DNA of 4,570 nt from a virus (taxonomy: Duplodnaviria; Heunggongvirae; Uroviricota; Caudoviricetes): the IMG/VR virus record IMGVR_UViG_2529292909_000015; one strand, 5' to 3'. The stretch's first letter is position 1. Each line of letters starts with the position of its first letter. Below, one piece after another: positions 1-4,570 of this stretch. The notes beneath the pieces were generated by a model, which was not told where the DNA came from, did not search any database, and saw only the letters and a program-made list of their open reading frames with translations. Position numbers and translations under genes: made by a program.

Positions 1-330
1 ATGGTAAAATGTAATATAATAAACTTACTTTTTTATCATTTTTCCACTTTAACAACATTTTGCTCCACTTTTCCACGACCAAACAACTTGAAATCTGGTT
101 AAAATAACACGCAACACTATTCTTCTTCCTTGAGTCCGCCCGGAACTCGAAAAACAAACCGAGTTAAAGCCATTTTTCACAAAATCGATTTTGGGTCTCA
201 CCAAAGTTACGGGGTTGCATACGCATTCGTTTATTTTCGAACGTGTACATACAAATATGCACAAAAATAATCAAAATTATTTTCTGAGATGCATTATGAT
301 ATGAACACCAATTTCGTATAGAGTCTCACT

Positions 331-921
331 ATGTCTCGAATTTTTGCTTACTGTCGGATATCAACGCTGGATCAGACCACCGAAAATCAACGCCGGGAAA
401 TCGAAAGTGCAGGTTTTAAAATCAAACCTCAGCAAATAATCGAAGAACACATTAGCGGCTCAGCAGCAACCAGTGAGCGTCCTGGTTTTAACCGGTTGCT
501 TGCTCGCCTGAAATGTGGTGATCAATTGATTGTGACAAAACTGGATCGCCTTGGTTGTAATGCAATGGATATCAGGAAAACAGTGGAACAACTGACCGAA
601 ACAGGTATCAGAGTGCATTGCTTAGCATTGGGGGGCATTGACCTGACCAGTCCAACAGGAAAAATGATGATGCACGTAATTTCAGCAGTCGCTGAATTTG
701 AACGAGACCTTTTACTTGAACGCACTCATTCCGGGATAGTAAGAGCCCGCGGCGCAGGGAAACGTTTTGGTCGACCACCTGTGTTAAATGAAGAACAGAA
801 ACAGGTGGTATTCGAACGAATTAAGTCAGGTGTAAGTATAAGTGCCATTGCCCGGGAATTCAAAACCTCGCGGCAAACCATTTTAAGAGCCAAAGCAAAA
901 CTTCAGACACCTGACATATAA
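331..921 (+). CDS. pinQ: Serine recombinase, DNA invertase of the Pin/Gin/Hin/Cin family (196 aa)
   Basis: ORF 331-921 translates to [15 protein letters not shown]...; N-terminal resolvase/invertase catalytic domain with the conserved Y-x-R-x-S-T-x-x-Q motif (presumed catalytic Ser11) and a C-terminal helix-turn-helix ([20 protein letters not shown]). Recognised as the PinQ/PinR-type invertase of E. coli lambdoid cryptic prophages; the Q symbol is chosen from the Qin-like neighbourhood (nohA/ynfO/ydfO-like genes downstream). Confidence 0.9.
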
Positions 922-1018
922 AAAATAATCTCGGTGTGAGATGCTTTACGTCTTCCAAGCCCCCTTCCTTGCCGTAAATGGAGAGATACATCTAATTATA
1001 GAATTTATATGTTTTACC

Positions 1019-1594
1019 CTACGGCAGTGCTGGCCATTCAATATCCGGTGCAGTTGATGTATCAACACGGTTCAGCAACACCCGATACTTTTTCCAGGCT
1101 TCCAGCAACAAGGTTTCTTCCTCCGTTGCGATCTCCAGATCCACAGCATCCTGAAGCGGCGCTATATGCTCACTGGCTATCTGCATCAGGCTGTTTTTTG
1201 TTTCTTCCGCCTCCCGGATCCGGAACAGTTTTTCTGCTTCCGTATCCTTCACCCAGGCTGTGCCGTTCCACTTCTGATATTCCCCTCCCGGCGATAACCA
1301 GGTAACATTTTCCGGTAACGGACCGAGTTCAGAAATAAATAACGCGTCCCCTGATGCCACGTCATAAACCGTTTTACCCCGATGATCTTCAACGAGATGC
1401 CACGATGCCTCATCACTGTTGAAAACAGCCACGAAGCCTGCCGGAATATCTGGCGGTGCAATATCGGTACTGTTTGCTGGCAGACCTGTATGAGGCGGAA
1501 TATATGCGTCACCTTCACCAATAAATTCATTAGTTCCGGCCAGCAGATTATAAATTTTTATGGTCCGTGGTTGTTCACTCATTCTGAATGCCAT
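1019..1594 (-). CDS. tfaQ: Tail fibre assembly protein (Tfa family chaperone, 191 aa)
   Basis: Minus-strand [27 protein letters not shown]...EWPALP recognised as the TfaQ/TfaR-type tail fibre assembly protein. ATG at 1594-1592 is preceded by a GAGG Shine-Dalgarno-like element and overlaps the stop of the upstream stf tip ORF (TAATG), indicating translational coupling. Stop codon TAG at 1021-1019. Confidence 0.88.
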
Positions 1595-2198
1595 TACGCA
1601 AGCCTCACAATATAGTTAAATGCGATGTTTTTGACGGTGTTTTCCGCGTTACCAGCAGCGTTAACGGTGATGGTATGTCCATGTGAACCAATCGCAACGG
1701 AGTGCGTATGAGCACCAATACCGACAGTATGTGCGTGTGCACCTGCGCTTGCAGCAGTACCCGATACAGAGTGCGTATGAGCGCCTGCAGAAGAAGTGTT
1801 AACACTGTATTTAGAATAATCAGGTGATCCACTTCCCGGAGCACCACTGGAACCACCTGAAACAAATGTCATCGAATGGGTATGTGCACCGGCTGTCCCC
1901 ATGCATTTACCGCCCGGACTGTCAGCCTGTAATTTCCCAGCGCCAGCTGCGTGAAGCGATATGTGGTTTCCGTCGTCCGGGCCGTGCTGACCAACCGCTC
2001 ACTGCCGTCGTCCGCTGCCACGGTCAGGCGAAGCATAAAGCTCACCCCCTTCACCACCTTCGGCGTGTCCCAGCGCGCCAGCACCTGGTATTCCCCGCTG
2101 TCTGCGGTGACTTCTGCGGTCAGGTGCTGAACTGCTGGCGGCGTGACACCATTCACCGTGCCGCTCTGGTCACCGTCAAAGTGCGCCCCGTTATCAGT
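1594..2198 (-). pseudogene. stfQ: Composite tail-fibre remnant: internal J-like (tail tip, fibronectin-III-like region) fragment (about 2198-1893) joined out of frame to the C-terminal receptor-binding tip of a side tail fibre protein Stf (about 1892-1594)
   Basis: Minus-strand frame open 2198-1872 encodes ...TVNGVTPPAVQHLTAEVTADSGEYQVLARWDTP...[27 protein letters not shown], which matches my recollection of an internal segment of lambda J, then runs into a stop after 7 unrelated codons. A different frame (open 1998-1597, ATG at 1902) encodes ...[10 protein letters not shown]...[10 protein letters not shown]...[50 protein letters not shown], the HxH-repeat C-terminal tip typical of lambda Stf / T4 gp37-type fibres. 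No N-terminal or shaft portion of Stf is present, and the two fragments are in different frames. Confidence 0.7.
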
Positions 2199-2698
2199 TC
2201 ATCCAGCGCGGCTGCTTTGTTCATGGCTTTGATGATATCCCGTTTCAGGAAATCAACATGTCGGTTTTCCAGTTCCGGAAAACGCCGCTGCACCGACAGG
2301 GGGATCCCGTCGAGAATACTGGCAATTTCACCTGCGATCCGCGACAGCACGAAAGTACAGAATGCGGTTTCCACCACTTCAGCGGAGTCTCTGGCATTTT
2401 TCAGCTCCTGTGCGTCGGCCTGCGCACGCGTAAGTCGATGGCGTTCGTACTCAATAGTCCCTGGCTGGAGATCTGTCTCGCTGGCCTGCCGCAGTTCTTC
2501 AACTTCCCGGCGCAGCTTTTCGTTCTCAATTTCAGCATCCCTTTCGGCATACCATTTTATGACGGCGGCAGAATCATAAAGCACCTCATTACCCTTGCCA
2601 CCGCCTCGCAGAACGGGCATTCCCTGTTCCTGCCAGTTCTGAATGGTACGGATACTCGCACCGAAAATGTCAGCCAGCTGCTTTTTGTTGACTTCCAT
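2153..2698 (-). CDS. nohA: Small terminase subunit Nu1 homologue (DNA-packaging protein NohA-like, 181 aa) with a non-native C-terminal tail
   Basis: Minus-strand ORF MEVNKKQLADIFGASIRTIQNWQEQGMPVLRGGGKGNEVLYDSAAVIKWYAERDAEIENEKLRREVEELRQ... is near-identical to lambda gpNu1 as I recall it, through ...KRDIIKAMNKAAALDELI; the last 10 residues (TGRTLTVTRAAR) diverge because the reading frame runs into J-like DNA. The N-terminal winged-HTH cosB-binding region is intact. Start ATG at 2698-2696, stop TGA at 2155-2153. Confidence 0.9.
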   Translation of the reverse strand: MEVNKKQLADIFGASIRTIQNWQEQGMPVLRGGGKGNEVLYDSAAVIKWYAERDAEIENEKLRREVEELRQASETDLQPGTIEYERHRLTRAQADAQELKNARDSAEVVETAFCTFVLSRIAGEIASILDGIPLSVQRRFPELENRHVDFLKRDIIKAMNKAAALDELITGRTLTVTRAAR

Positions 2699-2699
2699 T

Positions 2700-2915
2700 G
2701 TTCATTCCACGGACAAAAACAGAGAAAGGAAACGACAAAGGCCAAAAAGCCCGCTTTCAGCACCTGTCGTTTCCTTTCTTTTCAGGGGGTATTTTAAATA
2801 AAAACATTAAGTTACGACGAAGAAGAACGGAAACACCTTAAACCGGAAAATTTTCATAAATAGCGAAAACCCGCGAGGTCGCCGCCCCGTAACCTGTCGG
2901 ATCACCGGAAAGGAC
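2700..2915 (-). other. Lambda-type cos region: cosB (R1 about 2726-2741, R2 about 2763-2778, R3 about 2820-2838, A/T-rich IHF-type spacer between), cosN (2876-2887) and the cosQ-side right-end sequence (about 2888-2915)
   Basis: The reverse complement of 2698-2887 matches the lambda left end as I recall it (GGGCGGCGACCTCGCGGGTTTTCGCTATTTATGAAAATTTTCCGG...GAAAGGAAACGACAGGTGCTGAAAG...TGTCGTTTCCTTTCT...ATGGAAGTC) with only a few substitutions. The reverse complement of 2888-3086 matches the lambda right end (...GATGATAATCATTATCACTTTACGGGTCCTTTCCGGTGATCCGACAGGTTACG). The window therefore contains a closed (prophage-configuration) cos junction. Confidence 0.85.
2876..2887 (-). other. cosN cohesive-end sequence (5'-GGGCGGCGACCT-3' on the minus strand)
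   Basis: Plus strand 2876-2887 is AGGTCGCCGCCC, the exact reverse complement of the 12-nt lambda cohesive end, flanked by CGCGGG on the cosB side and CGTAACC on the cosQ side as in lambda. Confidence 0.85.
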
Positions 2916-3086
2916 CCGTAAAGTGATAATGATTATCATCTACATATCACAACGTGCGTGGAGGCCATCAAACCACGTCAAATAATCAATTATGACGCAG
3001 GTATCGTATTAATTGATCTGCATCAACTTAACGTAAAAACAACTTCAGACAATACAAATCAGCGACACTGAATACGGGGCAACCTC

Positions 3087-3320
3087 ATGTCAACGAAGAA
3101 CAGAACCCGCAGAACAACAACCCGCAACATCCGCTTTCCTAACCAAATGATTGAACAAATTAACATCGCTCTTGAGCAAAAAGGGTCCGGGAATTTCTCA
3201 GCCTGGGTCATTGAAGCCTGCCGCCGGAGACTGTGCTCAGAAAAAAGAGTTTCTTCTGAAGCAAACAAAGAAAAGAGTGACATTACTGAATTGCTCAGAA
3301 AACAGGTCAGACCAGATTGA
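3087..3320 (+). CDS. ynfO: Small basic protein, YnfO/YlcI-like (77 aa), predicted ribbon-helix-helix-like DNA-binding fold
   Basis: ORF MSTKNRTRRTTTRNIRFPNQMIEQINIALEQKGSGNFSAWVIEACRRRL...; Arg-rich N-terminal arm, then an alternating strand (RNIRFP), a helix ending in Gly (NQMIEQINIALEQKG) and a second helix (NFSAWVIEACRRRL), the pattern of Arc/MetJ/CopG RHH proteins. GGGG about 7 nt upstream of the ATG could serve as a Shine-Dalgarno. Position (first gene beyond cos, opposite strand to Nu1) and size fit the Qin ynfO / DLP12 ylcI class. The fold assignment is inference. Confidence 0.75.
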   Translation: MSTKNRTRRTTTRNIRFPNQMIEQINIALEQKGSGNFSAWVIEACRRRLCSEKRVSSEANKEKSDITELLRKQVRPD

Positions 3321-3362
3321 AGCAATTTAGATAATCGTGCAGACTACGCCCCCTCATATCAC

Positions 3363-3788
3363 ATGGAAGGTTTATCTATGGATCAGGTAGTCATTTTTAA
3401 ACAAATATTTGATAAAGTTCGAAACGATTTAAACTATCAATGGTTTTATTCTGAGCTAAAACGTCACAATGTCTCACATTACATTTACTATTTAGCCACA
3501 GAGAATGTTCATATTGTATTAAAAAATGATAATACAGTGTTATTAAAGGGCCTAAAAAACATTGTGTCTGTCAAATTTTCAAAGGATAGGCATCTTATAG
3601 AAACGACCTCTAATAAGCTGAAATCCAGAGAGATCACATTTCAGGAATACAGAAGAAACCTTGCTAAAGCAGGAGTTTTTCGGTGGGTTACAAATATCCA
3701 CGAACAAAAAAGATATTACTATACCTTTGATAATTCATTACTATTTACTGAAAGCATCCAGAAAACTACACAGATCTTACCACGCTAA
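3363..3788 (+). CDS. ydfO: YdfO/YbcV-like prophage accessory protein of unknown function (141 aa from ATG 3363; alternative start ATG 3378 gives 136 aa)
   Basis: [68 protein letters not shown]...QILPR; no predicted transmembrane segment and no catalytic motif I recognise. The internal ATG at 3378 has a much better Shine-Dalgarno (GGAAGG at 3365-3370, 7-nt spacer) than the first ATG. The gene is markedly AT-rich relative to the lambda-derived DNA to its left. I recall the YdfO/YbcV family as DUF1398, but that label is from memory. Confidence 0.8.
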
Positions 3789-3796
3789 ACCATAAC

Positions 3797-3825
3797 GTCC
3801 GGCTTCTCTCACTCCTGAGCCGGAC
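3797..3825 (+). other. Stem-loop immediately downstream of the ydfO-like stop (8-bp perfect stem GTCCGGCT/AGCCGGAC, 13-nt loop)
   Basis: Inverted repeat read directly: gtccggct (3797-3804) and agccggac (3818-3825). No U-tract follows, so it is not a canonical intrinsic terminator; it may be an RNA 3'-end stabiliser or a protein-binding site. Confidence 0.3.
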
Positions 3826-3894
3826 TGCATTGGTTTAATAAAAACCATCAACAATTGTGATTTAGATATTCGGAACCATTCAAATATAACAAAA

Positions 3895-3917
3895 CCCCGT
3901 AAAAACGAGGTTTATGG
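3895..3917 (-). terminator. Candidate intrinsic terminator for the minus-strand gnsB-like gene (weak, possibly bidirectional)
   Basis: Hairpin ccccgt-aaaa-acgagg (3895-3910; 5 of 6 stem positions pair) followed on the minus strand by a U-rich tract (TTTTGTTATATTTG) about 30 nt downstream of the gnsB-like stop codon; on the plus strand it is followed by TTTAT. Confidence 0.3.
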
Positions 3918-3939
3918 ATAAATTTTATTATTGAATACA

Positions 3940-4090
3940 TCAGATTAAATTAATCTTGACATCATAGCTTTCAAGACCCGTCATTTTTTCCCGTGCGGTA
4001 AACTGAATACTGGTAACTTCTTTCCCGGTCTTTTTCTTAAGTTCAATAATTTTTTTGTTATATATTCAGAAATATCTGCTTCTGCTTTTG
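3940..4090 (-). pseudogene. gnsB: gnsB-like gene remnant (GnsA/GnsB family): 5' end removed by the IS1 insertion and reading frame broken in a homopolymer run
   Basis: Minus-strand translation gives KAEADISEYITKK (frame ending at the A7 run, plus 4050-4056) and, one frame over, IIELKKKTGKEVTSIQFTAREKMTGLESYDVKINLI-stop (stop at 3942-3940). Joined, these align with the GnsA/GnsB sequence as I recall it (MNIEELKKQAETEIADFIAQKIAELNKNTGKEVSEIRFTAREKMTGLESYDVKIKIM). The first 8 or so codons and the promoter are replaced by the IS1 terminal inverted repeat, which begins at 4091. Confidence 0.6.
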
Positions 4091-4105
4091 GGTAATGACT
4101 CCAAC

Positions 4106-4570
4106 TTATTGATAGTGTTTTATGTTCAGATAATGCCCGATGACTTTGTCATGCAGCTCCACCGATTTTGAGAACGACAGCGACTTCCGTCCCAGCCGTG
4201 CCAGGTGCTGCCTCAGATTCAGGTTATGCCGCTCAATTCGCTGCGTATATCGCTTGCTGATTACGTGCAGCTTTCCCTTCAGGCGGGATTCATACAGCGG
4301 CCAGCCATCCGTCATCCATATCACCACGTCAAAGGGTGACAGCAGGCTCATAAGACGCCCCAGCGTCGCCATAGTGCGTTCACCGAATACGTGCGCAACA
4401 ACCGTCTTCCGGAGCCTGTCATACGCGTAAAACAGCCAGCGCTGGCGCGATTTAGCCCCGACGTATCCCCACTGTTCGTCCATTTCCGCGCAGACGATGA
4501 CGTCACTGCCCGGCTGTATGCGCGAGGTTACCGACTGCGGCCTGAGTTTTTTAAATGGCGGAAAATCGTG
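4106..4570 (-). CDS. insB: IS1 transposase InsB reading frame (insB', C-terminal 155 codons; 5' end outside window)
   Basis: Minus-strand frame reads [77 protein letters not shown]...[12 protein letters not shown]-stop, recognisable as IS1 InsB; stop TAA at 4108-4106. The ORF-track entry 4106-4483 is the Met-initiated portion of the same frame. Confidence 0.9.
4528..4570 (-). CDS. insA: IS1 InsA, C-terminal end (5' end outside window)
   Basis: Minus-strand frame reads ...[13 protein letters not shown]-stop with TAA at 4530-4528, matching the known InsA C-terminus that overlaps the start of the insB' frame. Confidence 0.8.
4546..4552 (-). other. IS1 programmed -1 ribosomal frameshift motif (A6C) at the insA/insB' overlap
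   Basis: Minus-strand sequence TTTAAAAAACTCAGG (plus strand GTTTTTT at 4546-4552) sits in the insA/insB' overlap, where IS1 is known to produce the InsAB' transposase by -1 frameshifting. Confidence 0.8.

Follow-up and report, generated by a model that had tools for sequence, protein, structure and literature searches.

The closest described relatives of the site analysed here are the cos regions of phage lambda, of phage 434, of the defective prophages of E. coli K-12 and of cos-type PICIs. In lambda, cosN comprises 12 bp plus 2 bp on each side, and R3 spans bp 50-65, of which bp 55-63 are contacted by TerS (PMC9026076). I2, a bent and AT-rich segment at about lambda bp 18-50, lies between cosN and cosB, and an unaltered cosN-to-R3 spacing is a requirement (PMC4856287). 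The terminase keeps to the cosB-bearing end, which is the end that is translocated (PMC4856287), while the C-terminal 30-40 residues of TerS are needed for binding of TerL (gpA) (PMC9026076). Phage 434 shares the packaging specificity of lambda (Feiss et al., PMC4669245). The defective prophages of K-12 contain cosN-lambda, which is the reason why lambda workers choose E. coli C as indicator (PMC4669245). When a phage of like specificity infects the cell, packaging is initiated at such a prophage cos and gives rise to stalled, tailless particles, and recombination may follow (Feiss et al., PMC4669245 section 18). DLP12, one of the K-12 prophages, recombines experimentally with infecting lambda; junctions are clustered at cos, with half of the lambda-prophage recombination junctions at or adjoining it, a pattern for which the authors propose that terminase cuts both cos sites (PMC3945230). 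As regards Qin, that study tested tfaQ rather than cos (De Paepe 2014, PMC3945230). Cos-type PICIs (EcCICFT073 and relatives) are chromosomal as well, carry lambda-like cosQ and cosN and depend on a helper terminase (PMC9026076), a dependence which Qin would share; unlike Qin, they have a non-lambda cosB, an Rpp protein that redirects TerS, and the ability to excise and replicate.

Here, we analysed a stretch of 4,570 nt (the window), in which genes were assigned from the list of open reading frames together with database matches (Table 1). Judged by its gene content, the locus is the cryptic lambdoid prophage Qin of E. coli, with the gene order pinQ-tfaQ-stf-nohA-cos-ynfO-ydfO. The assignment draws on the order ydfK-pinQ-tfaQ-stf-nohA-ynfO-ydfO-gnsB, adjoining ydfJ and without large terminase or head genes, and on 100% identity of window positions 1-4090 to many complete E. 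coli genomes annotated as Qin at this place, e.g. that of strain ML35. In the K-12 reference record, the homologous region is labelled 'cryptic prophage Qin' and the nohA product 'putative prophage DNA-packaging protein'; the noh genes are named as Nu1 homologues.

Table 1 Features of the window, with variants given relative to lambda.
Feature	Position	Strand	Remarks
pinQ	331-921	+	
tfaQ	1019-1594	-	
Side-tail-fibre fragment (stf)	1594-1902	-	
J fragment (tail-tip gene)	1892-2195	-	lambda 17302-17605, 92% identity (BLAST against lambda 15400-22800); Pfam Ig_J
nohA	2153-2698	-	Nu1 (small terminase) homologue, 181 aa; annotated nohA in RefSeq genomes
Intergenic region nohA/ynfO	2699-3086		
R1 (cosB)	2722-2738	-	lambda 151-166 with C151T; identical to annotated 434 R1
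C151T	2738		
R2 (cosB), inverted	2764-2780	-	exact 16-mer of lambda R2 (109-124); identical to 434 R2
T102C	2786		
I1 (cosB), IHF binding site	2802-2814	-	TAACTTAATGTTT; identical to lambda 74-86 and to curated 434 I1
A73G	2815		
R3 (cosB)	2823-2838	-	AGGTGTTTCCGTTCTT; lambda bp 50-65 with C53T; identical to annotated 434 R3
C53T	2835		
I2	2839-2870	-	sequence unchanged; lambda 1-52 without mismatch or indel
cosN	2874-2889	-	GGGCGGCGACCT plus 2 flanking bp per side; identical to lambda 48501-48502 and 1-14
cosQ (packaging-termination subsite)	2911-2917	-	GGGTCCT; identical to lambda 48473-48479
ynfO	3087-3320	+	
ydfO	3363/3378-3788	+	
gnsB, IS1-interrupted	from 4091		

BLAST comparison with lambda revealed two deletion junctions. 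At the first, lambda nt 703, within Nu1, is joined to lambda 17302, inside J; at the second, lambda 17605 continues at about lambda 21824, and the C-terminus of stf together with tfa corresponds to lambda 21824-22535. The Nu1/J junction amounts to a deletion of roughly 16.6 kb, which took away A and every head gene along with the tail-shaft genes and J in its 5' part. Since Nu1 homology breaks off at nt 703 of lambda and runs there directly into the J fragment, neither gene A nor any of the head genes is left, which bears out the original prediction of a prophage devoid of large terminase and head genes: nohA abuts the J fragment and none of these genes lie in between. In ML35, the annotation treats the fragment as a pseudogene related to J, and the exact nohA-J junction of the window occurs in 89 complete E. 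coli genomes. The Qin copy of K-12 MG1655 (cos-nohA, b1548) agrees with the window in prophage, chromosomal location and gene order and is 99.4% identical to it over window positions 2186-4090. In contrast to the window, which keeps a 304-bp J fragment, K-12 Qin has no J fragment and a longer stfQ, and its NohA has 189 aa, with lambda homology up to nt 719 and another tail, whereas the NohA of the window has 181 aa. The deletion end points of the two Qin variants differ likewise (window 1783-2185 versus K-12 5074-5856 in L014).

Further features of the locus were noted alongside. The homology to lambda stops at window position 3249, inside ynfO (window 3087-3320 versus lambda 48303-48070); the record of phage 434 includes a ynfO-like (DUF3950) open reading frame that NC_001416 does not list on this strand. 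Uninterrupted, as in other genomes, gnsB would cover positions 3940-4113 on the minus strand; here it is broken close to its 5' end by an IS1 element that starts at 4091 (junction 4090/4091; window 4091-4570), and this exact gnsB::IS1 junction was found in none of the complete E. coli genomes of the collection, so that the DNA may stem from a draft genome or from an IS1-rich lineage resembling Shigella. Inside tfaQ, a full-length Rfam match to IS009 (RF02111) was obtained at 1053-1251 on the minus strand with 221.5 bits (gathering score 117). IS009 is a candidate small RNA family, and its match sits within a tail-fibre-assembly gene.

To place the subsites of cos, we relied on published landmarks (PMC9026076, PMC4856287) and on the curated features in the record of phage 434. 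By this anatomy, the minus strand of window 2722-2917 is a complete lambda-type cos, consisting of cosQ, cosN, I2, R3, I1 with its IHF site, R2 and R1. Read on the minus strand, positions 3249 to 2186 are collinear with circularised lambda (48141-48502 followed by 1-703); the 1064 aligned nt contain 18 mismatches and a single gap of 1 bp. This collinearity, at 98% identity, takes in the 5' region of Nu1 and the ynfO-like region at the right end. On the cosQ side, identity is 100% over 336 bp (lambda 48167-48502, window 3223-2888). The 12-nt cohesive end GGGCGGCGACCT has a single exact match, at 2876-2887 on the minus strand, with lambda-identical flanks; about 5e-4 such matches would be expected by chance in the window according to our own arithmetic. 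Order, architecture and spacing are the same as in lambda, cosQ, cosN, I2, I1 and R2 are base-identical, and the distance from cosN to R3 is unaltered, there being no indel over lambda 1-52. The cosQ sequence is also identical to the curated cosQ of phage 434, which is placed 24-30 bp from the right end, and a repeat finder independently paired R1 with R2 as the perfectly matching 15-nt arms, 27 nt apart, of an inverted repeat. With cosN, the position of cosQ, I2 including its spacing and the cosB order R3-I1-R2-R1 all present, membership in the lambda-type cos sites is indicated by sequence. A scan with the strict IHF consensus (WATCAANNNNTTR) gave no match, even in lambda's own left end; because the consensus misses that site, I1 was judged by its identity to lambda and to the 434 annotation. 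A weak terminator-like hairpin (5-bp stem followed by a T-rich tail) lies at 2739-2752 on the Nu1-sense strand, in the R2-R1 spacer, and is probably incidental. Identity, anatomy and deletion junctions are in each case direct observations.

The original prediction had proposed a complete lambda-type cos with an exact 12-nt cohesive end and with all elements conserved, in the interval 2700-2915. Completeness and cohesive end were confirmed, as all subsites were found and every annotated one equals its curated counterpart in phage 434. Conservation held in substance, with an identical cosQ side and an exact R2, but was not base-perfect, as R3 carries C53T and R1 carries C151T. The interval does take in the site, but cuts off 2 bp of cosQ and includes bases of the Nu1 leader (2700-2721), which do not belong to cos. 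The alignment to lambda that had been suggested as a check was carried out and gave an identical cosN, an exact R2 and an R3 unchanged at positions 56, 58 and 59, where harmful mutations are known (PMC9026076; also PMC4669245).

On the cosB side (lambda 1-190), the sole differences from lambda are C53T, A73G, T102C, C151T and a 1-bp deficit at 137/138, by which the R2-R1 spacer is shortened. C53T concerns the fourth nominal base of R3, and C151T the first nominal base of R1, at its edge. Neither falls within bp 55-63, which TerS contacts, or within the corresponding part of R1 (contacts according to PMC9026076), and bp 54-65 of R3, including the contact segment, are identical to lambda. C53T was the variant that needed attention, because lambda has a conserved C here in each of its R elements (R3, R2 and R1). 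Could the site then be a dead relic, cos-like in appearance and non-functional through C53T, C151T, the spacer or its chromosomal context, i.e. single copy, topology or occupancy by NohA or nucleoid proteins? Conservation of C53 in lambda favours such a reading, as do the particular weight of R3, the most critical of the R elements, and the importance of cosB geometry (PMC9026076). However, viable phage 434 (OL657226, curated) has the same R3, R1 and spacer, along with identical I1, R2 and cosQ and an equal R2-R1 spacing, and its Nu1 protein equals that of lambda across all 181 residues. A seed-constrained search found the 53T version of R3 in 22 deposited phage genomes, classical phage 434 included; given these 21 phage records besides 434 and the lambda-identical TerS of 434, C53T was dropped as an inactivating change. 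All five variants together were present in the complete phages 2H10 and PhiR70_1 in an alignment of nine complete lambdoid phages, and both have full Nu1-A-W-B-C-D-E modules and a TerS identical to that of lambda over residues 1-66. The spacer that is 1 bp below lambda was seen in all nine other aligned phages and in phage 434, so that the short form is the common state and lambda the outlier; the site corresponds to window position 2751 (lambda 137-138), where the lambda reference NC_001416 carries the extra base. Moreover, helper terminase efficiently uses a passive, repressed prophage cos in the dilysogen assays of Feiss (PMC4669245). C53T or the shorter spacer may affect efficiency, yet phage 434 shares both. 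At the level of sequence, no difference separates the Qin cos from cos sites that work with lambda TerS, and we regard the dead-relic explanation as unlikely.

Not every part of the region follows 434. Compared to the window, phage 434 shows eight differences in the left-end DNA between the subsites and nine more in a stretch of about 85 bp of the cosQ side, in which the window does not depart from lambda. Between the window and K-12 Qin, 12 differences were counted over positions 2186-4090, and seven of these fall inside 124 bp of cosB (2712-2835; Fisher p = 2.5e-6 for an interval chosen post hoc). The cosB haplotype of K-12 (54A/134A/145G/176G) equals that of phage PhiR42_1, whereas the haplotype of the window is nearest to 2H10/PhiR70_1. 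This pattern would fit cosB having been exchanged, repeatedly or patchwise, between Qin and phages that are active, but does not prove it.

We favour, with a probability of roughly 85%, the reading that the Qin cos would be inert in cis, could be used in trans by a terminase of lambda/434 specificity, and would then give rise to stalled packaging and a recombinogenic end. For cleavage, packaging and recombination, we infer the course of events from lambda biochemistry and the cited literature. In cis, no activity would be expected, since there is no TerL: in contrast to lambda, the cos of Qin is not followed by gene A or head genes, and the prophage keeps only a NohA remnant, with the gpA endonuclease/ATPase, portal and capsid genes deleted. 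In trans, a lytic phage of lambda specificity would supply TerS, which would bind R3 and R2 across an IHF-bent I1 and thereby place TerL at cosN, with predicted nicks at 2888/2887 on the minus strand and 2876/2875 on the plus strand. The terminase would remain on the cosB end and spool nohA, stf/tfa, pinQ and ydfK, and then host genes. As the cosB-bearing end is the one translocated, packaging would proceed from cosN via cosB to Nu1, towards decreasing coordinates; the Nu1-to-pin direction given in the original prediction is thus in agreement with the terminase staying on that end (PMC4856287). We used ML35, which is identical over window positions 1-4090, as surrogate genome for the DNA beyond the window. 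Its 50 kb on the spooled side hold nohA, stf/tfa, pinQ, ydfK, ydfJ-ydfG, dcp, the mar and lsr operons and hipBA, and no second cosQ-cosN was detected in these 50 kb. Once the head is filled, translocation would stall and leave a tailless, non-infectious particle; this would be the product, and not a transducing phage, because termination needs cosQ and cosN and none lie within a headful. The earlier reading was supported by the sequence in other respects, but had left termination out of account. As a possible alternative outcome, a downstream crossover with phage DNA could yield a recombinant phage (PMC4669245 section 18). The unprotected cosQ end, for its part, would be exposed to nucleases and to recombination with the infecting phage, from which mosaic phage-prophage recombinants may arise. 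A single-copy, unreplicated chromosomal cos is a poor competitor against the hundreds of cos sites on phage concatemers. A literature search for a direct test of the Qin cos found none; it did not reach Espion et al. 1983, reportedly the paper that defined Qin, or Kotani et al. 1992, which is said to deal with lambda terminase acting on the E. coli chromosome.

The NohA protein of the window (181 aa) differs from lambda Nu1 by A75T, L132I and P170T and by the replacement of residues 172-181 with out-of-frame J-derived sequence, which matches the scrambled C-terminus that had been predicted. It aligns to Pfam Phage_Nu1 (PF07471) over profile positions 1-164 of 164 (E = 3.9e-101). The claim of an intact N-terminal DNA-binding domain was upheld as well, with residues 1-68 identical to PDB 1j9i, the winged-HTH DNA-binding domain of lambda TerS; over residues 1-98, a single change (A75T) was found relative to PDB 6hn7. 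The C-terminal TerL-binding domain, on the other hand, is not intact (P170T; residues 172-181 replaced), and the ability of NohA to recruit TerL appears doubtful, since this binding is mediated by the C-terminal 30-40 residues of TerS (PMC9026076). DLP12 of K-12 (cos-nohD) resembles Qin as a cryptic prophage with a lambda-type cos and a Nu1 homologue. Unlike Qin, it has 3.35 kb in common with lambda, which include R, Rz, some of A and a complete nu1 that is functional in lambda, whereas in the Qin copy the C-terminus of Nu1 is truncated or altered and A sequence is lacking.

But, could cos and the C-terminally altered NohA have been maintained in order to harm superinfecting lambdoid phages? 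The cos site might act as a packaging sink or decoy, and NohA might occupy cosB or, being defective in TerL binding, poison terminase assembly. We found the cos segment, at a coverage of at least 80%, in 3981 of 5426 complete E. coli genomes (about 73%), with a median of two copies that usually adjoin nohA, nohD or an intact terminase gene, and such a widespread and well-preserved segment would fit a selected function. So would a NohA with a perfect DNA-binding/oligomerisation region that has lost the last ten residues of its TerL-binding C-terminus (C-terminal role: PMC9026076), and a lowered yield of viable progeny through initiation events of this kind (Feiss, PMC4669245). However, the prevalence count pools Qin, DLP12 and intact prophages and is therefore no evidence of selection on Qin. 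The C-termini of nohA and the deletion end points differ between the two Qin variants, which resembles decay and not design, and a scan of positions 2600-3400 found no sigma-70-like promoter for nohA. Against hundreds of phage copies, one chromosomal cos would also be a weak sink, and lambda grows well on K-12, although this strain carries both the Qin and the DLP12 cos sites. We thus consider maintenance for such a function very improbable. A wider version, an anti-lambdoid device kept by selection in which NohA blocks cosB or poisons terminase, cos diverts proheads and the site serves as entry point for swaps of cosB haplotypes, fares hardly better; if true, proheads of lambda/434-type phages would end in dead-end particles.

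Of next to no probability is a satellite-like mobilisation, in which cos would let Qin or a part of it be packaged and transferred by a helper in the manner of PICIs: E. coli PICIs with lambda-like cosQ and cosN are indeed packaged by lambda/phi80 helpers (PMC9026076), but the cosB of Qin is of the phage type and adjoins a Nu1 homologue where PICIs have a non-lambda cosB and rpp, ML35 offers no second cos within 50 kb, and excision and replication functions are absent from the window and the neighbouring ML35 DNA. Identity as a cos-type PICI was rejected, too, in view of the phage-type cosB, the Nu1 homologue and the lack of an integrase/replication module in the window and the ML35 flanks.

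The preferred reading, a site inert in cis and usable by a helper terminase in trans, was put forward in the original prediction as a scenario of its own, and in this respect it is not new: PMC4669245 contains the same scenario, and PMC3945230 pursued it for DLP12. Both consequences, abortive particles and recombination, are described there (Feiss 2015, PMC4669245; De Paepe 2014, PMC3945230, the latter for DLP12). The Qin cos is a long-known, very common and ordinary finding. Beyond correct annotation, its importance is small, and it constitutes a relic of the textbook type. The cosB-clustered differences between Qin variants add a small extra hint of phage-prophage exchange. Practical relevance is modest and relates to possible contamination of packaging or transduction experiments and to hot spots of exchange between phages and prophages.
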